Source: a virus. Taken from it: 11,511 nt of DNA. This document shows positions 1 through 10,273 of the stretch, piece after piece (position 1 is the first letter of the stretch; every line of letters starts with the position of its first letter). The stretch lies in the UHGV virus genome UHGV-0110285, one strand, 5' to 3'. Made by a program: the position numbers and the translations under genes. The notes below the pieces were generated by a model, which saw only the letters and a program-made list of their open reading frames with translations, was not told the DNA's origin and did not search any database.

Positions 1-46
1 AGGTTGCTCCGGGCTATGAAATAGAAAAATGAATCCGTTGAAGCCT
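1..46. other. Host chromosomal flank (B arm of attL, gal side of attB-lambda)
   Basis: Sequence left of the core (..GAAGCCTGCTTTTTTATACTAA) matches the recalled bacterial attB arm rather than the phage P arm; the right side of the core continues as the lambda P' arm (AGTTGGCATTATAAAAAAGC..). Confidence 0.7.
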
Positions 47-61
47 GCTTTTTTATACTAA
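47..61. other. attL: Lambda att 15-bp common core (O) GCTTTTTTATACTAA
   Basis: Exact 15-bp lambda att core read directly at 47-61. Confidence 0.95.
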
Positions 62-134
62 GTTGGCATTATAAAAAAGCATTGCTTATCAATTTGTTGC
101 AACGAACAGGTCACTATCAGTCAAAATAAAATCA
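62..134. promoter_or_regulatory. attL P' arm: IHF H' site (TATCAATTTGTTG, about 86-99) and Int arm-type sites P'1/P'2 (AGGTCACTAT CAGTCAAAAT, 108-127)
   Basis: Recognisable IHF consensus WATCAANNNNTTR and tandem arm-type Int sites immediately 3' of int, as in lambda attP/attL. Confidence 0.8.
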
Positions 135-1205
135 TTATTTGATTTCAATTTTGTCCCACTCCCTGCCTCTGTCATCACGATACTGTGATGCCATGGTGTC
201 CGACTTATGCCCGAGAAGATGTTGAGCAAACTTATCGCTTATCTGCTTCTCATAGAGTCTTGCAGACAAACTGCGCAACTCGTGAAAGGTAGGCGGATCC
301 CCTTCGAAGGAAAGACCTGATGCTTTTCGTGCGCGCATAAAATACCTTGATACTGTGCCGGATGAAAGCGGTTCGCGACGAGTAGATGCAATTATGGTTT
401 CTCCGCCAAGAATCTCTTTGCATTTATCAAGTGTTTCCTTCATTGATATTCCGAGAGCATCAACATGCAATGCTGTTGGGATGGCAATTTTTACGCCTGT
501 TTTGCTTTGCTCGACATAAAGATATCCATCTACGATATCAGACCACTTCATTTCGCATAAATCACCAACTCGTTGCCCGGTAACAACAGCCAGTTCCATT
601 GCAAGTCTGAGCCAACATGGTGATGATTCTGCTGCTTGATAAATTTTCAGGTATTCGTCAGCCGTAAGTCTTGATCTCCTTACCTCTGATTTTGCTGCGC
701 GAGTGGCAGCGACAGGGTTTGTTGTTATATGGCCTTCAGCTATTGCCTCTCGGAATGCATCGCTCAGTGTTGATCTGATTAACTTGGCTGACGCCGCCTT
801 GCCCTCGTCTATGTATCCATTGAGCATTGCCGCAATTTCTTTTGTGGTGATGTCTTCAAGTGGAGCATCAGGCAGACCCCTCCTTATTGCTTTAATTTTG
901 CTCATGTAATTTATGAGTGTCTTCTGCTTGATTCCTCTGCTGGCCAGGATTTTTTCGTAGCGATCAAGCCATGAATGTAACGTAACGGAATTATCACTGT
1001 TGATTCTCGCTGTCAGAGGCTTGTGTTTGTGTCCTGAAAATAACTCAATGTTGGCCTGTATGGCTTCAGTGATTGCGATTCGCCTGTCTCTGCCTAATCC
1101 AAACTCTTTACCCGTCCTTGGGTCCCTGTAGCAGTAATATCCATTGTTTCTTATATAAAGGTTAGGGGGTAAATCCCGGCGCTCATGACTTCGCCTTCTT
1201 CCCAT
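135..1205 (-). CDS. int: Lambda integrase Int (tyrosine recombinase), 356 aa
   Basis: ATG-initiated 356-aa ORF MGRRRSHERRDLPPNLYIRNNGYYCYRDPRTGKEFGLG.. recognised as lambda Int; 3' end abuts the P' arm. Confidence 0.97.
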   Translation of the reverse strand: MGRRRSHERRDLPPNLYIRNNGYYCYRDPRTGKEFGLGRDRRIAITEAIQANIELFSGHKHKPLTARINSDNSVTLHSWLDRYEKILASRGIKQKTLINYMSKIKAIRRGLPDAPLEDITTKEIAAMLNGYIDEGKAASAKLIRSTLSDAFREAIAEGHITTNPVAATRAAKSEVRRSRLTADEYLKIYQAAESSPCWLRLAMELAVVTGQRVGDLCEMKWSDIVDGYLYVEQSKTGVKIAIPTALHVDALGISMKETLDKCKEILGGETIIASTRREPLSSGTVSRYFMRARKASGLSFEGDPPTFHELRSLSARLYEKQISDKFAQHLLGHKSDTMASQYRDDRGREWDKIEIK

Positions 1206-1401
1206 TTCTGATCCTCTTCAAAAGGCTACCTGTTACTGGTCGATTTAAGTCAACCTTTACCGCTGATTCGTGGAACAGATACTCTCTTCCATCCTTAACC
1301 GGAGGAGGGAATATCCTGCACTCGCGTACCCATCGACGAACTGTTTCAAGGCTTCTTGGGCGTCGCTGGCGTGCGTTCCATTCCTGAAGTGTCAAGTACA
1401 T
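1183..1401 (-). CDS. xis: Lambda excisionase Xis, 72 aa
   Basis: 72-aa ORF MYLTLQEWNARQRRPRSLETVRRWVRECRIFPPPVKDGREYLF.. ; 23-nt overlap with int start as in lambda. Confidence 0.95.
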   Translation of the reverse strand: MYLTLQEWNARQRRPRSLETVRRWVRECRIFPPPVKDGREYLFHESAVKVDLNRPVTGSLLKRIRNGKKAKS

Positions 1402-1425
1402 CGCAAAGTCTCCGCAATTACACGC

Positions 1426-1450
1426 AAGAAAAAACCGCCATCAGGCGGCT
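1426..1450 (-). terminator. Putative intrinsic terminator on minus strand (hairpin CCGCC-TGAT-GGCGG followed by a T6 run) between orf55 and xis
   Basis: Plus strand reads AAAAAACCGCCATCAGGCGGCTT; the minus-strand RNA would form a GC hairpin followed by UUUUUU. Confidence 0.5.
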
Positions 1451-1608
1451 TGGTGTTCTTTCAGTTCTTCAATTCGAATATTGGTTACGTCTGCATGTGC
1501 TATCTGCGCCCATATCATCCAGTGGTCGTAGCAGTCGTTGATGTTCTCTGCTTCGATAACTCTGTTGAATGGCTCTCCATTCCATTCTCCTGTGACTCGG
1601 AAGTGCAT
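1441..1608 (-). CDS. Small hypothetical protein (lambda orf55-like), 55 aa; absent from the supplied ORF track because it is under 60 aa
   Basis: Manually translated minus-strand ORF MHFRVTGEWNGEPFNRVIEAENINDCYDHWMIWAQIAHADVTNIRIEELKEHQAA with GGAG 8 nt upstream of the ATG and in-frame stops immediately upstream. Confidence 0.55.
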   Translation of the reverse strand: MHFRVTGEWNGEPFNRVIEAENINDCYDHWMIWAQIAHADVTNIRIEELKEHQAA

Positions 1609-1696
1609 TTATCATCTCCATAAAACAAAACCCGCCGTAGCGAGTTCAGATAAAATAAATCCCCGCGAGTGCGAGGATTGTTATGTAATATTGGGT

Positions 1697-1978
1697 TTAA
1701 TCATCTATATGTTTTGTACAGAGAGGGCAAGTATCGTTTCCACCGTACTCGTGATAATAATTTTGCACGGTATCAGTCATTTCTCGCACATTGCAGAATG
1801 GGGATTTGTCTTCATTAGACTTATAAACCTTCATGGAATATTTGTATGCCGACTCTATATCTATACCTTCATCTACATAAACACCTTCGTGATGTCTGCA
1901 TGGAGACAAGACACCGGATCTGCACAACATTGATAACGCCCAATCTTTTTGCTCAGACTCTAACTCATTGATACTCAT
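1697..1978 (-). CDS. ea8.5: Lambda Ea8.5 (small zinc-binding protein, function unknown), 93 aa
   Basis: 93-aa ORF MSINELESEQKDW.. with Cys/His motifs (SPCRHHEG, CPLC); AAGGAG RBS upstream; position between xis and ea22 as in lambda. Confidence 0.85.
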   Translation of the reverse strand: MSINELESEQKDWALSMLCRSGVLSPCRHHEGVYVDEGIDIESAYKYSMKVYKSNEDKSPFCNVREMTDTVQNYYHEYGGNDTCPLCTKHIDD

Positions 1979-2169
1979 TTATAAACTCCTTGCAATGTAT
2001 GTCGTTTCAGCTAAACGGTATCAGCAATGTTTATGTAAAGAAACAGTAAGATAATACTCAACCCGATGTTTGAGTACGGTCATCATCTGACACTACAGAC
2101 TCTGGCATCGCTGTGAAGACGACGCGAAATTCAGCATTTTCACAAGCGTTATCTTTTACAAAACCGATC

Positions 2170-2718
2170 TCACTCTCCTTTGATGCGAATGCCAGCGTCA
2201 GACATCATATGCAGATACTCACCTGCATCCTGAACCCATTGACCTCCAACCCCGTAATAGCGATGCGTAATGATGTCGATAGTTACTAACGGGTCTTGTT
2301 CGATTAACTGCCGCAGAAACTCTTCCAGGTCACCAGTGCAGTGCTTGATAACAGGAGTCTTCCCAGGATGGCGAACAACAAGAAACTGGTTTCCGTCTTC
2401 ACGGACTTCGTTGCTTTCCAGTTTAGCAATACGCTTACTCCCATCCGAGATAACACCTTCGTAATACTCACGCTGCTCGTTGAGTTTTGATTTTGCTGTT
2501 TCAAGCTCAACACGCAGTTTCCCTACTGTTAGCGCAATATCCTCGTTCTCCTGGTCGCGGCGTTTGATGTATTGCTGGTTTCTTTCCCGTTCATCCAGCA
2601 GTTCCAGCACAATCGATGGTGTTACCAATTCATGGAAAAGGTCTGCGTCAAATCCCCAGTCGTCATGCATTGCCTGCTCTGCCGCTTCACGCAGTGCCTG
2701 AGAGTTAATTTCGCTCAC
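2170..2718 (-). CDS. ea22: Lambda Ea22, 182 aa (GTG start overlapping the orf73 stop as GTGA)
   Basis: 182-aa ORF MSEINSQALREAAEQAMHDDWGFDADLF.. ; size and position match lambda Ea22. Confidence 0.85.
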   Translation of the reverse strand: MSEINSQALREAAEQAMHDDWGFDADLFHELVTPSIVLELLDERERNQQYIKRRDQENEDIALTVGKLRVELETAKSKLNEQREYYEGVISDGSKRIAKLESNEVREDGNQFLVVRHPGKTPVIKHCTGDLEEFLRQLIEQDPLVTIDIITHRYYGVGGQWVQDAGEYLHMMSDAGIRIKGE

Positions 2719-2936
2719 TTCGAACCTCTCTGTTTACTGATAAGTTCCAGATCCTCCTGGCAACTTGCACAAGTCCGACAACCCTGAACGACCAGGCGTC
2801 TTCGTTCATCTATCGGATCGCCACACTCACAACAATGAGTGGCAGATATAGCCTGGTGGTTCAGGCGGCGCATTTTTATTGCTGTGTTGCGCTGTAATTC
2901 TTCAATTTCTGATGCTGAATCAATGATGTCTGCCAT
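2715..2936 (-). CDS. TraR/DksA-family C4 zinc-finger protein (lambda orf73-like), 73 aa
   Basis: 73-aa ORF with CCECGDPIDERRR...CRTCASCQ, the four-Cys zinc finger typical of TraR/DksA secondary-channel RNAP binders. Confidence 0.75.
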   Translation of the reverse strand: MADIIDSASEIEELQRNTAIKMRRLNHQAISATHCCECGDPIDERRRLVVQGCRTCASCQEDLELISKQRGSK

Positions 2937-2989
2937 CTTCCATTAATCCCTGAATTGTTGGTTAATACGCTTGAGGGTGAATGCGAATA

Positions 2990-3013
2990 ATAAAAAAGGA
3001 GCCTGTAGCTCCC
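2990..3013 (-). terminator. Putative intrinsic terminator on minus strand (GGGAGC-TACAG-GCTCC hairpin followed by a T6 run) between the orf61 region and orf73
   Basis: Plus strand AAAAAAGGAGCCTGTAGCTCCC; minus-strand RNA would be a hairpin plus UUUUUU. Confidence 0.45.
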
Positions 3014-3034
3014 TGATGATTTTGCTTTTCATGT

Positions 3035-3346
3035 TCATCGTTCCTTAAAGACGCCGTTTAACATGCCGATTGCCAGGCTTAAATGAGTCGGTGTGAATCC
3101 CATCAGCGTTACCGTTTCGCGGTGCTTCTTCAGTACGCTACGGCAAATGTCATCGACGTTTTTATCCGGAAACTGCTGTCTGGCTTTTTTGATTTCAGAA
3201 TTAGCCTGACGGGCAATGCTGCGAAGGGCGTTTTCCTGCTGAGGTGTCATTGAACAAGTCCCATGTCGGCAAGCATAAGCACACAGAATATGAAGCCCGC
3301 TGCCAGAAAAATGCATTCCGTGGTTGTCATACCTGGTCTCTCTCAT
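3035..3346 (-). CDS. Hypothetical protein in the lambda orf61 position; open for 103 codons here
   Basis: ATG start overlaps the orf63 stop by 20 nt (lambda-like arrangement); the frame stays open to 3035. Confidence 0.55.
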   Translation of the reverse strand: MRETRYDNHGMHFSGSGLHILCAYACRHGTCSMTPQQENALRSIARQANSEIKKARQQFPDKNVDDICRSVLKKHRETVTLMGFTPTHLSLAIGMLNGVFKER

Positions 3347-3518
3347 CTGCTTCTGCTTTCGCCACCATCATTTCCAGCTTTTGTGAAAGGGATGCGGCTA
3401 ACGTATGAAATTCTTCGTCTGTTTCTACTGGTATTGGCACAAACCTGACTCCAATTTGAGCGAGGCTATGTGCCATCTCGATACTCGTTCTTAACTCAAC
3501 GGGAGATGCTTTGTGCAT
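3327..3518 (-). CDS. Lambda orf63-like hypothetical protein, 63 aa
   Basis: 63-aa [29 protein letters not shown].. in the expected position and with the expected overlaps. Confidence 0.7.
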   Translation of the reverse strand: MHKASPVELRTSIEMAHSLAQIGVRFVPIPVETDEEFHTLAASLSQKLEMMVAKAEADERDQV

Positions 3519-3673
3519 ACAGCTCCCCGTTTATTATTTATCTCCTCAGCCAGCCGCTGTGCTTTCAGGGGATTTCGGATAACAGAAAGGCCGGGAAATA
3601 CCCAGCCTCGCTTCGTAACGGAGTAGACGAAAGTGATCGTGCCTACGCGGATATTATCGTGAGGATGTTTCAT
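3491..3673 (-). CDS. Lambda orf60a-like hypothetical protein, 60 aa (ATG at 3673 overlapping the exo stop as ATGA; the track ORF starts two codons earlier at 3679)
   Basis: [29 protein letters not shown].. ; translational-coupling overlap with exo. Confidence 0.65.
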
Positions 3674-4350
3674 CGCCATTGCTCCCCAAATACAAAACCA
3701 ATTTCAGCCAGTGCCTCGTCCATTTTTTCGATGAACTCCGGCACCATCTCGTCAAAACTCGCCATGTAATTTTCATCCCGCTCAACCACGACATAATGCA
3801 GGCCTTCACGCTTCATTCGTGGGTCATAGTTGGCAAAGTACCAGGCATCTTTTCGCGTCACCCACATGCTGTACTGCACCTGGGCCATGTAAGCTGACTT
3901 TATGGCCTCGAAACCACCGAGCCGGAATTTCATGAAATCCCGGGAGGTAAACGGGCATTTCAGTTCAAGGCCGTTGCCGTCACTGCATAAACCATCGGGA
4001 GAGCAGGCGGTGCGCATACTTTCGTCGCGATAGATGATCGGGGATTCAGTAACATTCACGCCGGAAGTAAACTCAAACAGGGCTCTGGCGTCGTTCTCGT
4101 ACTGTTTTCCCCAGGCCAGCGCCTTAGCATTAACTTCCGGAGCCACACCGGTGCAAACCTCAGCCAGCAGGGTGTGGAAGTAGGACATTTTCATGTCAGG
4201 CCACTTCTTTCCTGAGCGGGGCTTTGCTATCACGTTGTGAACTTCTGAAGCGGTGATGACGCCGAGCCGTAATTTGTGCCATGCATCATCCCCCTGTTCG
4301 ACAGCTCTCACGTCGATCCCGGTACGCTGCAGGATAATGTCCGGTGTCAT
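3670..4350 (-). CDS. exo: Lambda exonuclease (Red alpha), 226 aa
   Basis: 226-aa [46 protein letters not shown].. recognised as lambda Exo; ATGA overlap with the bet stop. Confidence 0.96.
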
Positions 4351-5132
4351 GCTGCCACCTTCTGCTCAGTGGCTTTCTGTTTCAGGAATCCAAGAGCTTT
4401 CACTGCTTCGGCCTGTGTCAGTTCTGACGATGCGCGAATGTCGCGGCGAAATATCTGGGAACAGAGCGGCAATAAGTCGTCATCCCATGTTTTATCCAGG
4501 GCGATCAGCAGAGTGTTAATCTCCTGCATGGTTTCATCGTTAACCGGAGTGATGTCGCGTTCTGGCTGACGTTCTGCAGTGTATGCAGTATTTTCGACAA
4601 TGCGCTCGGCTTCATCCTTGTCATAGATACCAGCAAATCCGAAGGCCAGACGGGCACACTGAATCATGGCTTTATGCCGTAGCATCCGTTTGGGATGCGA
4701 CTGCCACGGTCCGGTGATTTCTCTGCCTTCGCGGGTTTTGAATGGTTCGCGGCGGCATTCATCCATCCACTCGGTAACGCAGATCGGATGATTACGGTCC
4801 TTGCGGTAAATCCGGCATGTACATGATTCATTGTCCTGCTCAAAGTCCATGCCATCAAACTGCTGGTTTTCATTGATGATACGGGACCAGCCATCAACGC
4901 CCACCACCGGAACGATGCCGTTCTGCTTGTCAGGGAAGGCGTAAATTTCTTTCGTCCACGGATTAAGGCCGTACTGGTTGGCGACGATCAACAATGCGAT
5001 GAACTGCGCATCGCTGGCATCACCTTTAAATGCCGTCTGGCGAAGAGTGGTGATCAGTTCCTGTGGGTCGACAGAATCCATGCCGACGCGTTCAGCCAGC
5101 TTCCCAGCCAGCGTTGCGAGTGCTGTACTCAT
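4347..5132 (-). CDS. bet: Lambda Beta single-strand annealing protein (Red beta), 261 aa
   Basis: 261-aa [62 protein letters not shown].. recognised as lambda Bet. Confidence 0.96.
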
Positions 5133-5137
5133 CCGTT

Positions 5138-5434
5138 TTATACCTCTGAATCAATATCAACCTGGTGGTGAGCAATGGTTTCAACCATGTACCGGATGTG
5201 TTCTGCCATGCGCTCCTGAAACTCAACATCGTCATCAAACGCACGGGTAATGGCTTTTTTGCTGGCCCCGTGGCGTTGTAAATGATCGATGCAGAGTGAT
5301 TCAAACAGGTGCTGGGGCAGGCCTTTTTCCATGTCGTCTGCCAGTTCTGCCTCTTTCTCTTCACGGGCGATCTGCTGGTAGTGACGCGCCCAGCTCTGAG
5401 CCTCAAGACGATCCTGAATGTAATAAGCGTTCAT
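5138..5434 (-). CDS. gam: Lambda Gam (RecBCD inhibitor), short 98-aa form only
   Basis: 98-aa [63 protein letters not shown].. ; an in-frame stop lies 18 codons upstream of the ATG, so the longer 138-aa form is not encoded. Confidence 0.9.
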
Positions 5435-5488
5435 GGCTGAACTCCTGAAAATGGCTGTGAAAATATCGCCCGCGAAATGCCAGGCTGA

Positions 5489-5602
5489 TTAGGAAAACAG
5501 GAAAGGGGATTAGTGATTCAGGCCGTTACCGCGTCCGTCGAGAAAAACTTCCACGAGCAAATCACGGGTATCTGGCTGAAAGAGGGGGTTATTAAGGCGT
5601 GA
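5489..5602 (+). pseudogene. 3' remnant of the gene normally upstream of rusA (product unknown), truncated at the gam/nin junction
   Basis: Open frame ..[27 protein letters not shown] ends with a TGA that overlaps the rusA GTG start (GTGA coupling) but has no start codon; its upstream end runs into gam-derived sequence. Confidence 0.4.
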
Positions 5603-5961
5603 ATACCTACAGTATCACATTACCCTGGCCTCCGAGCAATAATCGCTATTACCGCCATAATCGCGGGCGCACGCACATCAGCGCAGAAGGGCAGGCATAC
5701 CGCGATAACGTCACCCGAATCATTAAAAACGCAATGCTGGATATCGGCCTGGCTATGCCAGTGAAAATCCGTATTGAGTGCCACATGCCGGATCGCCGTC
5801 GCCGTGACCTGGATAATCTGCAAAAAGCCGCTTTTGACGCACTCACCAAAGCAGGTTTCTGGCTGGATGATGCTCAGGTCGTTGATTACCGCGTTGTGAA
5901 GATGCCGGTTGTCAAAGGTGGAAAGCTGGAACTGACCATCACTGAACTGGGAGATGAATGA
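5599..5961 (+). CDS. rusA: RusA Holliday-junction resolvase, 120 aa (GTG start)
   Basis: 120-aa [40 protein letters not shown].. recognised as the RusA family found in nin regions of lambdoid prophages (DLP12, phage 82). Confidence 0.9.
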
Positions 5962-6098
5962 TGTTTGAGTTTTATATGGCAGAACTTCTTCGCCACCGCT
6001 GGATGCGCCTGCGCTTATATCGTTTCCCCAGTTCTGTTTTGACCGATTACCGAATACTGAGGAATTACGCCAAAACCCTGACAGGAGCAGGAGTATGA
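5958..6098 (+). CDS. ylcG: YlcG-like small protein, 46 aa; absent from the supplied ORF track because it is under 60 aa
   Basis: Manually translated [49 protein letters not shown] starting 4 nt before the rusA stop; 46 codons, matching the size and position of DLP12 ylcG between rusA and Q. Confidence 0.55.
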
Positions 6099-6183
6099 AG
6101 TCAGAGATAACAATCAACTAATACTGTTTTGTTGATTTTTGCTTGTAATTGGCGTTCTGGTCTGATTTTTGTGGAGTAAGTTG

Positions 6184-6567
6184 ATGCGTGATATTCAGAT
6201 GGTTCTTGAGCGTTGGGGAGCGTGGGCGGCTAATAATCATGAAGATGTGACCTGGTCGTCCATTGCCGCCGGTTTTAAGGGATTAATTACTTCAAAAGTA
6301 AAATCTCGCCCGCAATGTTGTGACGATGACGCGATGATTATTTGCGGGTGCATGGCCCGTCTGAAAAAGAACAACAGCGATTTGCACGATTTATTAGTAG
6401 ATTATTATGTAGTCGGTATGACATTCATGTCACTGGCAGGTAAGCATTGCTGCTCTGATGGTTATATCGGGAAAAGGTTACAGAAGGCTGAGGGTATAAT
6501 TGAAGGGATGTTAATGGCATTAGATATCCGGTTAGAGATGGATATCGTTGTTAATAACTCTAATTAA
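6184..6567 (+). CDS. quuD: Late-gene antiterminator Q (QuuD-like, non-lambda Q type), 127 aa from the ATG at 6184 (the track ORF begins at a TTG at 6169)
   Basis: [24 protein letters not shown].. with Cys-rich stretch [16 protein letters not shown]; GGAG 8 nt upstream of the ATG; sits between rusA/ylcG and the lysis genes. Confidence 0.8.
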
Positions 6568-6600
6568 TACGCCAATTATTTACTAAAAGTTATTAAAAAT

Positions 6601-6619
6601 GGGGCGTTGAAACGCCCCC
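6601..6619 (-). terminator. Intrinsic terminator for minus-strand (porin) transcripts: GGGGCGT-TGAA-ACGCCCC followed by AUUUUU on the minus strand
   Basis: Perfect 7-8 bp GC stem read directly; the T-run is on the minus-strand side. Confidence 0.6.
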
Positions 6620-6658
6620 AAAAATAAAGGGTAATATATAACAGAAGGTTTGTATAGT

Positions 6659-6755: not shown

Positions 6756-7838
6756 TTAGAACTGGTAAACCATACCTACAGCAACGATATCATCGGTAGC
6801 AACGCCAGATGCTTTCGTGAAATCGCTCTTATCAATCAGGTTGATTTTGTAGTCAACAAAAGTGGACATATTTTTGTTGAAGTAATAGGTTGCACCTACA
6901 TCAACATATTCAACCAGGTCCTGATCACCCCAAACACCCAAGTCTTTTCCTTTAGAATGCAGGTAAGCAACGGATGGACGCAGGCCGAAGTCGAACTGAT
7001 ATTGTGCAACAGCTTCGAAGTTTTGTGCTTTGTTGGCAATATGGTTATTACCAAAAACAGTCATGTTCTGGGTTTCAGAATAGGTGGTGGCCAGATAGAT
7101 GTTGTTCGCATCATATTTCAGACCAGCTGCCCATACTTCAGCATTTTGACCAGAAGCATTCAGACCGTTGTTACCGTAGATAACCTGATTATTAGTGCGA
7201 TCAGATTTAGCATAGGTTGCACCCACGCCGAATCCTTCATACTCATAAGTAGTTGAGAAACCGAAACCATCGCCATTAGCTTCAGTTACTTCATTTCGGT
7301 CATTTTTGCCCTGATACTGAGCTGCAAAGTTCAGGCCATCAACCAGACCAAAGAAGTCGTTGTTACGATAAGTTGCAACACCTGTGGTGCGACCAGTCAT
7401 GAATACATCTGTTTGGGTCCAGGTATCGCCACCGAATTCTGGCAGAACGTCAGTCCACGCACCGATGTCGTATGCTACACCGTAGTTACGGCCGTAATCG
7501 ATGGAGCCGTAGTCACCGAATTTCAGGCCAGCGAAGGCAAGACGGGTTTTATCTTTGGAGGAACCTTGAGATTCAGCGCGGTTGCCTTTGAATTCATATT
7601 CCCACTGACCGAAACCAGTCAGTTGATCGTTGATTTGGGTTTCACCTTTGAAGCCAAGACGGGCATAAGTAGTATCACCATCATCTGCATCATTAGAGGA
7701 GAAGTAGTGTTTAGCATTAACTTTCCCGTACAGATCCAGCTTGTTACTGTCTTTATTATAAATTTCAGCTGCCTGAGCAGACATCGCCATCAGTACTGAT
7801 GCAGCTACAGCAGAAATTGCCACTGTTAATTTTTTCAT
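6756..7838 (-). CDS. nmpC: Phage-borne general porin of the OmpC/OmpF superfamily (Lc/NmpC/OmpD-like), 360 aa, apparently intact
   Basis: Signal peptide [23 protein letters not shown] then AEIYNK..; 16-strand porin-like sequence ending in a C-terminal Phe (..VGMVYQF); convergent with Q, the arrangement known from PA-2 lc and DLP12 nmpC. Confidence 0.9.
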
Positions 7839-8060
7839 CGTGAGCCCTTTTTTTTGAACTATTATTAAAAAATGATGTCACTGCGCGATAAATATTCATC
7901 TAATCAATATGATTATTTCAAGATGTAAGTTTTGGTTTCTCGTTTGATTTGTGAAGTAGATCTCTATTTTTATCTGAACTTTTTTCTATCGAATCCTATT
8001 CATGGCTCTTGGCTGAATAAAAATAAATCTATTAGCCAATTTATATTAACGGTTGTTATT
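7839..8060 (-). promoter_or_regulatory. AT-rich 5' control region of the porin gene (promoter not resolved)
   Basis: About 220 bp of AT-rich non-coding sequence immediately upstream of the porin ATG on the minus strand. Confidence 0.3.
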
Positions 8061-8266
8061 TATAAGTGCTCTATGATTTGAAGGTTCAATTTAAATCGGC
8101 TAAAAATAACACTAGAAATTATTTGTTGGTTATTTGTTGAGATTTGCTTATGTATTTGTAGTGGTGTTTTCAATACTCGGTAGCATTCTCGCAAATATCA
8201 TTTAGTGGTTTACGTACGTAAAAAATTGGTTATGCTGTTAAGAGTGGTTACTTCGTCACACAGCTT

Positions 8267-8411: not shown

Positions 8412-8627
8412 ATGAAATCCATGGATAAGTTAACAACGGGTGTCGCCTATGGCACCTCAGCAGGTAGTGCCGGGTACTGGTTTTTACAGCTGCTAGATAA
8501 AGTCACGCCCTCACAGTGGGCGGCAATTGGAGTGCTGGGTAGCCTGGTATTTGGCCTGCTGACGTACCTGACAAACCTTTATTTCAAGATTAAAGAAGAT
8601 AAGCGCAAGGCTGCGAGAGGTGAATAA
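8412..8627 (+). CDS. essD: Class II holin/pinholin of the phage 21 S type, 71 aa, with dual-start motif MKSM
   Basis: [71 protein letters not shown]: two transmembrane segments, charged C-terminus, Met1/Met4 starts; GAGGTGG RBS. Confidence 0.9.
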
Positions 8628-9124
8628 TGCCTCCATCATTACGAAAAGCCGTTGCTGCTGCTATTGGTGGCGGAGCAATTGCTATAGCATCAGTGTTAAT
8701 TACTGGCCCAAGTGGTAACGATGGTCTGGAAGGTGTCAGCTACATACCATACAAAGATATTGTTGGTGTATGGACTGTATGTCACGGGCATACAGGAAAA
8801 GACATCATGCTCGGTAAAACGTATACCAAAGCAGAATGCAAAGCCCTCCTGAATAAAGACCTTGCCACGGTCGCCAGACAAATTAACCCGTACATCAAAG
8901 TCGATATACCGGAAACAACGCGCGGTGCTCTTTACTCGTTCGTTTACAACGTGGGTGCTGGAAATTTCAGAACATCGACGCTTCTTCGCAAAATAAACCA
9001 GGGCGATATCAAAGGCGCATGTGATCAGCTACGTCGCTGGACATATGCTGGCGGTAAGCAATGGAAAGGTCTCATGACTCGTCGTGAGGTTGAGCGTGAA
9101 ATTTGTTTGTGGGGTCAGCAATGA
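8627..9124 (+). CDS. rrrD: SAR (signal-anchor-release) endolysin, lysozyme of the phage 21 R type, 165 aa
   Basis: N-terminal Gly/Ala-rich weakly hydrophobic segment [20 protein letters not shown] followed by a lysozyme-like domain; ATG overlaps the holin TAA (TAATG). Confidence 0.92.
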
Positions 9125-9579
9125 ACAGAGTAACCGCGATTATCTCCGCTCTGGTTATCTGCATCATCGTCTGCCTGTCATGGGCTGTTAATCATTACCG
9201 TGATAACGCAATCGCCTACAAAGAGCAGCGCGATAACAAGGCCAGTGAACTGGAGAAGGCGAACGCCACCATCGCTGACATGCGGAAGCGTCAACGTGAT
9301 GTAGCAGAACTCGACGCAAGATACACAAAGGAGCTTGCTGATGCTAACGCGACTATCGAAAGTCTCCGTGCTGATGTTTCTGCTGGGCGTAAGCGCCTGC
9401 AAGTCGCCGCCACCTGTGCAAAGTCAACGACCGGAGCCAGCGGCATGGGCGATGGAGAAAGCCCAAGACTTACAGCAGATGCTGAACTCAATTATTACCG
9501 TCTCCGAAGTGGAATCGACAAGATAACCGCGCAGGTTAACTACCTGCAGGAATACATCAGGACGCAATGCCTGAAATAA
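9121..9579 (+). CDS. rzpD: Rz spanin inner-membrane subunit (i-spanin), 152 aa from the ATG at 9121 overlapping the endolysin stop (the track ORF starts at 9103)
   Basis: [28 protein letters not shown].. : N-terminal transmembrane segment then a coiled-coil-like periplasmic domain; position after the endolysin. Confidence 0.85.
9341..9526 (+). CDS. rzoD: Rz1 outer-membrane lipoprotein spanin (o-spanin) embedded in the +1 frame of Rz, 61 aa from the ATG at 9341 (the track ORF starts at a TTG at 9335)
   Basis: [20 protein letters not shown]|[16 protein letters not shown].. : lipobox ending in Cys, proline-rich mature part; AAGGAG 9 nt upstream; fully nested in Rz. Confidence 0.8.
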
Positions 9580-9636: not shown

Positions 9637-9784
9637 CATCTGAATTTCACAGCGCATCTCACGCGCATATTACATCACCCGAGCCTTTCAGAAAGTTGAG
9701 CCTGAGAACTGCCGTATATGGTGGCGACCATCTCGGGGCGGCTTTTCTGTGAGACAGGCTCACTTTCTAAAAGGTAAAGACGCT

Positions 9785-10273
9785 ATGAACCAATTAGAAG
9801 AAAAGCTTCAAAGAATGATTTCCTTATACAAGGAAGATAACTGCCAAAAAGTTCCTGAAAACATCGCAGAGTTAATGGAATTGGCAAGTGAATTTTCTGG
9901 CATGCTTAAGTCGTCAGGTGTTCGGTCAGCGTTCTTTGTTGAAATGCTGATGCACGGCGGACTTATGGCAACAATGAGACGTGTAATGGAAGACCAGAGA
10001 AAAGAACCTCCTCAGGTATACGTTTTGTCATCGAAGAAAACTGGGCTAACCAAAATTGGGTATTCATCCAACATTCCACAACGCATCAAATCGCTTGGCA
10101 ACTCTGGACCAGACTGCTTGAAGCTTGAGTGCCTGATCCCTGGTGGAAGAGAAACTGAAAACATGCTTCATCGCAAATTTGCCGCAAAGAGAAAGCACGG
10201 TGAATGGTTCGCCCTGTCCAAGGATGACATTGAGGGATTGAAATCTGTAGCGATTACTTCTGATGGCTATTAA
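9785..10273 (+). CDS. Hypothetical protein with a C-terminal T5orf172/GIY-YIG-like domain, 162 aa from the ATG at 9785 (the track ORF starts at a GTG at 9749); sits where lambda carries bor
   Basis: C-terminal half QVYVLSSKKTGLTKIGYSSNIPQRIKSLGNSGPDCLKLECLIPGGRETENMLHRKFAAKRKHGEWFALSKDDI fits the T5orf172 pattern (VYVL..KIG...R..L...E..LH..F...R..GEWF); AGGTAAAGA RBS before the ATG; N-terminal 75 aa helical with no recognised similarity. Confidence 0.6.
   Translation: MNQLEEKLQRMISLYKEDNCQKVPENIAELMELASEFSGMLKSSGVRSAFFVEMLMHGGLMATMRRVMEDQRKEPPQVYVLSSKKTGLTKIGYSSNIPQRIKSLGNSGPDCLKLECLIPGGRETENMLHRKFAAKRKHGEWFALSKDDIEGLKSVAITSDGY

Follow-up and report, generated by a model that had tools for sequence, protein, structure and literature searches.

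In the stretch of DNA studied here, a defective prophage at att-lambda appears to have undergone one recent deletion of 8,741 bp that orphaned an intact and likely quiet set of Red recombination genes. We put the probability of this reading at roughly 0.8, and nothing in the data indicates that the genes are being maintained.

Gene content of the window

Judged by its genes and its att core, the window (the whole stretch of 11,511 nt that was analysed) represents the left portion of a defective lambdoid prophage at att-lambda of E. coli, whose right arm is of DLP12 type. In the six-frame ORF list, the genes up to gam are on the minus strand and those beyond it mostly on the plus strand. The features on either side of the Red genes are as follows, where L and a number denote a relative.

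47..61, plus strand: lambda att core GCTTTTTTATACTAA, attL of the prophage (exact match, 0 expected by chance)
135..1205, minus strand: lambda-type integrase, 356 aa (ORF; the L017 counterpart matches Pfam Arm-DNA-bind_1 and Phage_integrase)
1183..1401, minus strand: excisionase, 72 aa (ORF; Pfam Exc in L017)
1441..3679, minus strand: exo-xis accessory genes, namely orf55, ea8.5, Ead/Ea22-like, TraR/orf73-like, orf61-like, DUF1382 (orf63) and DUF1317 (orf60a) (ORFs)
5599..5961, plus strand: rusA, Holliday-junction resolvase, 120 aa, intact, severed from pR (ORF; Pfam RusA; annotated rusA in L001, L002 and L025)
5958-6098, plus strand: ylcG, promoterless (ORF; Pfam Phage_YlcG in L017)
6184-6567, plus strand: quuD, Q-type antiterminator, promoterless (ORF; Pfam Phage_antitermQ in L017)
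6756-7838, minus strand: porin gene, between quuD and essD (ORF; Pfam Porin_1)
8412-9579, plus strand: essD, rrrD and rzpD, lysis genes (ORF list)

The same att core adjoins ybhC, the chromosomal neighbour of att-lambda, in the relatives L001, L011, L017 and L025, and the integrase is labelled a tyrosine recombinase in the annotation of L001 and L025. The Pfam labels of the exo-xis genes were transferred from L017, which is 99.95% identical to the window; all of these genes are open, and they align gap-free with those of L011 and L025. According to the ORF list, no immunity, repressor, N, cro, O, P or other replication gene is present anywhere in the window. An att site with int and xis, but without immunity and replication genes, is what characterizes a defective (cryptic) lambdoid prophage. 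Searches of the window with Rfam at the gathering threshold and with a tRNA scan returned no matches.

The Red genes

The three Red genes follow one another on the minus strand.

3670..4350, minus strand: exo, lambda exonuclease, 226 aa, intact (full-length match to PDB 6m9k/1avq)
4347..5132, minus strand: bet, Red beta annealase, 261 aa, intact (matches to 7ujl and 8tfu)
5138..5434, minus strand: gam, RecBCD inhibitor of GamS length, 98 aa, intact (match to 5mbv)

Both the ORF list and the alignments bear out the original prediction that exo, bet and gam are full-length genes at these coordinates and with these lengths. Exo is identical to the crystallised protein (PDB 6m9k/1avq) at 221 of 226 positions, with all 226 residues aligned, five substitutions and E = 3e-154. 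A protein identical to the window Exo carries the Pfam YqaJ domain, and 7,691 blocks of public assemblies list this exact Exo sequence. Residues R28, D119, E129 and K131 are kept at those positions; from the lambda Exo structures, we take D119, E129 and K131 to be catalytic and R28 to bind the 5'-phosphate.

Residues 1-177 of Bet are identical to the lambda Bet construct 7ujl, and residues 182-261 match 8tfu with one substitution in the C-terminal domain, A255T. Altogether, Bet is identical to the lambda protein at about 260 of 261 positions and comprises both the N-terminal annealing domain and the C-terminal domain that binds Exo and SSB, with a match to Pfam RecT. Gam aligns with GamS (5mbv) over 98 of 98 residues, of which 95 are identical and three substituted, and it matches Pfam Gam (PF06064). 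A ribosome site, AGGAG, is found 7 nt before the gam ATG, and the frame is closed upstream of this codon. These alignments suggest that the Red proteins are essentially those of wild-type lambda and would work if transcribed.

The genes had also been said to keep their ATGA translational couplings. This holds for bet and exo, where the stop of the former overlaps the start of the latter as ATGA, and the exo stop overlaps the orf60a start in the same way. It does not hold for gam and bet, which do not overlap and are separated by a 5-nt gap (TAA-AACGG-ATG) that recurs in all relatives compared.

When 5,426 complete E. coli genomes were searched, 3,137 proved to contain a lambda Red module at >=80% of its full length. 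The presence of Red genes in E. coli is unremarkable by itself.

The deletion junction and the undeleted prophage

Upstream of gam, a three-way alignment resolves two gene remnants and the point at which they meet.

5510..5571, minus strand: 3' remnant of a kilR-type cell-division-inhibitor gene, last 19 codons and stop (equal to the C-terminus of the 68-aa D217-5 gene)
5569..5571, no strand: deletion junction, TAT microhomology common to both parental flanks (three-way alignment)
5572..5602, plus strand: 3' remnant of ybcO, last 9 codons and stop, reading WLKEGVIKA-stop (alignment; the stop overlaps the rusA GTG as GTGA)

The similarity that the window shows to the left arms of lambdoid phages breaks off at 5571, within kilR and 137 nt upstream of the gam ATG, and similarity to the ybcO-rusA region of DLP12-type prophages begins at about 5563. 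The 37-mer that spans the junction is CACGAGCAAATCACGGGTATCTGGCTGAAAGAGGGGG. The kilR remnant is without its start codon and 49 codons; in relatives, the parental gene is labelled PF27398 KilR.

Among complete E. coli genomes, we found an undeleted counterpart in E. coli D217-5 (NZ_CP076268.1, 843.3-866 kb), with 99.9% identity to the Red module. Joining position 6902 of this locus to position 15644 reproduces the window across the junction, and the missing interval measures 8,741 bp. The two prophages share their integration site. Over window positions 1-5571 they show one difference in 5,571 bases, which falls in bet codon 117, where the window holds the lambda residue. The right arm is 99.8% identical over the first 1.7 kb past the junction and about 97-98% identical beyond about 7.3 kb; at the place of the KilA-N gene of D217-5, the window carries a T5orf172 gene instead. 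Set against these likenesses is the control and replication region, which in D217-5 is present in full.

The left arm of the D217-5 prophage runs in the order ybhC, int, xis, the exo-xis genes, exo, bet, gam and kilR. The control and replication region contains homologues of RexB and RexA (Pfam), an S24/HTH repressor, a cro-like gene, ydaT, O and P, and the right arm consists of a PRTase-like and NADAR pair, ybcN, ninE, ybcO, rusA, ylcG, quuD, the porin gene, the lysis genes, nohD and terminase. Reading the deleted gene content from the D217-5 annotation and Pfam, we find that the window has lost the 5' part of kilR, the pL/operator region, rexB, rexA, the cI-like repressor, the cro-like gene, ydaT, O and P, and also two accessory genes, ybcN, ninE and the 5' end of ybcO, which leaves it without most of the nin genes.

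The deleted interval holds a terminator after rexB and, upstream of kilR, a promoter-like stretch with repeated ACAAAACAAC motifs, followed by a leader; at the corresponding site, the relative L011 has a TTGATA-17-TATTAT match. In these relatives, the promoter-like stretch upstream of kilR is likely pL/OL. The claim that the native pL promoter has been lost is thus confirmed, since the lambdoid homology ends at 5571 and the promoter/operator stretch of D217-5 and L011 falls in the deleted interval. Neither pL with its operators nor N with nutL, the elements of a functional pL operon, is present in the window.

The companion claim, that the N gene was deleted as well, was borrowed from the lambda map and fares differently. 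In D217-5, no homologue of lambda N (PF11438) is found between the promoter and kilR, and a search of its control region with Rfam at E <= 1 gave no match and no known nut/put-type RNA. Because the undeleted relative likewise has no such match between pL and kilR, N was perhaps never part of this phage, and the loss of an antiterminator is unsupported. There are prophages with the same exo allele that do carry N (e.g. L005). Between their pL and kilR, the relatives have a 78-aa ORF that starts with TTG and includes an arginine-rich stretch; it might be an N analogue, but it has no Pfam hit and lies outside the window.

Promoters upstream of the Red genes

Our promoter scans covered sigma-70 only and comprised a PWM scan and a stricter consensus scan; as controls for the former, lambda pL scored 11.9 bits, pR 12.2 and lac 8.9. 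A promoter search on the minus strand upstream of 5435, which the original prediction had proposed, gave no strong match; it did give three weak candidates (7.8-8.7 bits), which are listed here together with a terminator-like hairpin.

5611..5639, minus strand: weak candidate promoter TTGCTC-17-(TGt)GATACT, antisense in rusA (PWM 7.8 bits)
6433..6404, minus strand: weak candidate promoter GTGACA-18-CATAAT, antisense in quuD (PWM 8.7 bits; consensus scan)
6365..6337, minus strand: weak candidate promoter TTCAGA-17-AATAAT, antisense in quuD (PWM 8.3 bits; consensus scan)
6601..6618, minus strand: terminator-like hairpin GGGGCGTTTCAACGCCCC followed by ATTTTT, 3' of the porin gene (consensus scan)

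For the candidate at 5639..5611, 177 nt separate the end of the -10 hexamer from the gam ATG downstream of it. This site ranks 25th of 114,800 window positions in the PWM scan and was not reported by the consensus scan, which found no sigma-70-like site on the minus strand in the approximately 900 nt upstream of gam. The two candidates antisense in quuD lie about 0.9-1 kb upstream of gam. Over the whole window, the consensus scan reported 9 sigma-70-like sites versus 19.9 expected in shuffles, and because the window has fewer sites than its shuffles, the candidates stand at chance level. On the plus strand, the best promoter-like site upstream of rusA scored 5.8 bits (PWM), and rusA-ylcG-quuD, too, is without a convincing promoter, though it may be transcribed at a leaky level.

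The putative leader of the Red transcript (5610-5425, minus strand) shows no unusual structure, with a fold z of 0.31, and contains two terminator-like hairpins by the consensus scan, both weak. In lambda, weak terminators known as tL2 lie a short way upstream of gam. The porin gene is the sole minus-strand gene upstream of gam, and the good terminator-like hairpin at its 3' side would stop transcription that starts at the porin promoter from continuing towards gam. Silence of the Red module is likely, given that there is no strong promoter upstream of gam and only the three weak candidates. As far as these scans can tell, the module is without a convincing promoter, and its transcription is most likely quiet or merely leaky.

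A different outcome, which we consider unlikely, is that the deletion put Red downstream of weak promoters antisense in rusA or quuD and so made it a leaky or fortuitously activated module. Gam, Bet and Exo would then be made constitutively at a low level, and a modest hyper-recombination or natural recombineering phenotype would follow. It speaks for such activity that the deletion itself brought the 7.8-bit candidate to its present distance from the gam ATG, that the sites at 6433..6337 come near the lac promoter in score, that the leader has no strong terminator and that a good Shine-Dalgarno sequence precedes gam. All three candidates, however, score far below lambda pL, and promoter-like sites are rarer in the window than in the shuffles. 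Transcripts from the quuD sites would moreover begin with about 1 kb of untranslated antisense RNA, and long RNA of this type is a typical target of Rho. Constitutive Gam inhibits RecBCD and lowers viability; selection would oppose constitutive expression.

We give little credence to the more specific proposal that, via the candidate at 5639..5611, the deletion made a lineage with low constitutive expression of wild-type lambda Red. If this were true, the carrier strain would be proficient in recombineering without a plasmid and more open to short or diverged DNA, with RecBCD partly inhibited.

Age of the deletion and fate of sister remnants

An independent contig of 4.56 Mb (L017, GCA_014106035.1) covers all 11,511 bases of the window with six SNPs and no gaps. 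None of the six falls in the Red genes, in which L017 and the window show 0 differences, and four cluster in rrrD. Besides L017, four more similar places were reported, and at least five or six assemblies carry the remnant.

To place the deletion in time, L017 and D217-5 can be compared in the ybhC flank, where 3 of 1331 bases differ, versus 1 of 5571 in the prophage left arm. Since the left arm differs less than the flank, the split between the hosts is older than the prophage. The elapsed time is so short that fewer than one mutation would be expected in 1.8 kb. With a deletion this recent, intact reading frames carry no information on selection; the Red genes owe their intact state to the very recent date of the deletion and to the chance position of its left endpoint, just upstream of gam. 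The original prediction had described the module as retained. Insofar as this word implies selection, it finds no support: the single difference from D217-5 and the lack of Red differences between carriers show recency only.

Other remnants of this prophage family at the same site have lost different parts. LR-71-1 keeps Red and gam-kil-cIII-ea10 and has IS5 in place of the control region, bet is lost in PI12, and the entire left arm is lost in L015 and L023. These differing independent deletions are the pattern of haphazard, unselected decay.

The same data bear on whether the module has been domesticated, with purifying selection keeping Red for a benefit to the host such as recombinational repair or phage exclusion or recombination. 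The open state of every left-arm reading frame and the number of assemblies that hold the remnant would fit such a role. We nevertheless judge it highly improbable, as the divergence from the undeleted prophage is 1 SNP in 5,571 bp, the two carriers compared have identical Red genes, bet or all of the left arm is missing from sister remnants at this site, and a benefit would be hard to realise when the promoter is absent.

A search with the junction region identified no genome with the same junction among the 5,426 complete RefSeq E. coli genomes; PI12 is the only one of them with gam near rusA, by way of a different deletion that also removed bet. The exact junction likewise gave 0 matches in a search of one genome per GTDB species; the source lineage is not a species representative. 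That these two sets are without the junction could be read as a sign that it is an assembly or sequencing artefact and that the true locus is a complete prophage, but we attach practically no weight to this, given the identical junction in the independent contig, whose six SNPs lie elsewhere in the window, the four further similar places and the clean join at a microhomology.

Proposed origin of the orphaned module

We propose that illegitimate recombination at the 3-bp TAT fused the leftward operon, at a point within kilR, with the rightward nin region at the final codons of ybcO. Two divergent stumps are left, neither with its native promoter, kilR'-gam-bet-exo-...-xis-int reading leftward and ybcO'-rusA-ylcG-quuD reading rightward.

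In the pL operon, kil kills the host when derepressed (PMC3961180). The prophage would be disarmed, as the kil start has been lost and as replication and Q-dependent lysis depend on the lost pR. From the extent of the deletion, we infer that the loss of kil, of replication and of access to lysis would prevent killing of the host on induction, and disarmed lysogens may have been tolerated or favoured. The orphaned Red genes could regain activity through an IS insertion or a promoter-up mutation.

Comparison with known systems

The window shares with lambda the three Red genes, their order and spacing (including the 5-nt gam-bet gap and the bet/exo ATGA) and the exo-xis genes downstream, and its Red proteins are 97-99.6% identical to the crystallised forms. 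It differs from lambda in having neither pL/OL nor a repressor and in the reduction of kil to a 3' stump. Even in the parent, the layout of the operon departed somewhat from that of lambda, as the closest undeleted relative carries a kilR of the Rac type and nothing recognisable as N.

A functional recombination gene stranded without effective transcription is also found in DLP12 of E. coli K-12, whose quiescent rusA was activated by upstream insertion of IS2 or IS10 (PMC1636454). The window contains the DLP12-type series rusA-ylcG-quuD-porin-essD-rrrD-rzpD, in which rusA is likewise without pR. In contrast to DLP12, the prophage is at att-lambda and not at the DLP12 site, its stranded module is Red and not the resolvase, and it has no activating insertion.

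The original prediction had likened the module to recET of the Rac prophage, which is described as repressed and as released by sbcA mutations or by incorporation into lambda (PMC3945230). The likeness stands in that each pairs an exonuclease with an annealase inside a defective lambdoid prophage; recET is normally unexpressed, as the Red module probably is, and either could be activated by a mutation. It does not extend to the cause of silence, as recET is repressed, whereas in the window the promoter region has been physically deleted. RecE and RecT are different proteins from Exo and Bet, although Bet is in the RecT Pfam family. In these respects, rusA of DLP12 is the closer precedent.

The prophages engineered for recombineering (cI857-pL-N-kil-gam-bet-exo) resemble the window in their position at att-lambda, in the presence of gam-bet-exo, int and xis and in the lack of replication genes (PMC3961180). 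They keep cI857, pL and N, which makes Red heat-inducible; the window has lost these and keeps Q and the lysis genes. Defective prophages of K-12 donate sequence to infecting lambdoid phages (PMC3945230), and by analogy, it is reasonable to suppose that this remnant could donate sequence to superinfecting lambdoid phages.

Significance

An orphaned, intact recombination module in a defective prophage is already known, with rusA of DLP12 and recET of Rac as precedents. The locus is a case of ordinary prophage decay and matters little beyond annotation. It does provide a clean and datable case, in which one deletion at a microhomology removes the host-killing and regulatory functions of a prophage and strands Red and rusA back to back. 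With the states before and after the deletion both at hand, the former through D217-5, the locus offers a natural system for the silence, the rate of decay and the re-activation of orphaned phage genes.

Effect of the deletion on the right-hand operon

The deletion that created the window junction also removed pR from the genes at the start of the right arm, leaving a stump of the right-hand operon ahead of a porin gene and the lysis genes:

5599-6567, + strand: rusA, ylcG and the Q-type antiterminator gene quuD, cut off from pR
6756-7838, - strand: intact porin gene, 360 aa, NmpC/OmpC-like (Pfam Porin_1)
8412-9579: intact lysis cassette essD, rrrD, rzpD

The pR-less rusA reproduces the situation of the quiescent rusA in DLP12, the defective prophage of K-12. 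Because quuD is likewise stranded without pR, Q-dependent expression of the essD-rrrD-rzpD cassette has no route, even though the cassette itself is intact. The porin gene, placed between quuD and the lysis genes, carries its own terminator and is followed by a stretch of 31% GC (low-GC region 7750-8250); it is probably the sole gene of the remnant to have an independent promoter.

Mosaicism and probable sequence exchange in the right arm

Downstream of the lysis cassette, the window differs from its relatives in gene content:

9749-10273, + strand: T5orf172/MUG113 (GIY-YIG-like) gene

In the undeleted sister prophage of D217-5, as in several other relatives, this position is occupied by a KilA-N/ORF11CD3 gene instead, and this difference indicates that the right arm is mosaic. 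Identity to relatives is 97.7-98.7% in the right arm, compared with 99.98% in the left arm. The window and the independent assembly L017 are identical apart from six differences, four of which lie inside 44 bp of the lysozyme gene rrrD (window 8919-8962). This cluster looks like a short gene-conversion patch, with another prophage's lysozyme as donor, rather than independent point mutations.

In the matching assembly L017, just past the position of the window's right end, the stretch from a DUF1398 gene to a YlcI/DUF3950 gene is broken up by an IS3-family transposase (L017 12890-14052), indicating at least one further disruptive event in the remnant.

Early-left region and cargo slot of undeleted relatives

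The interval between the putative pL and kilR is missing from the window through the deletion. In undeleted relatives (L025, the D217-5 prophage, 7040-7530; L011, a related prophage, 6130-6640), it contains no recognisable N gene. It does hold a TTG-initiated 78-aa ORF, which lacks Pfam matches and includes the arginine-rich segment GVKRTRERR. Repeated ACAAAACAAC motifs occur in the putative operator region of these relatives.

Lambda has rexAB in the slot that separates its repressor gene from pL. Among otherwise very similar prophages, the content of this slot differs:

L025, 7523-8826: RexA/RexB homologues
L011, 4555-6128: HipA_2 and DUF3037 pair
L006 (a further related prophage), 4750-6152: DUF6932 and an unknown gene

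The repressor-pL slot looks like a hotspot for swappable defence genes.
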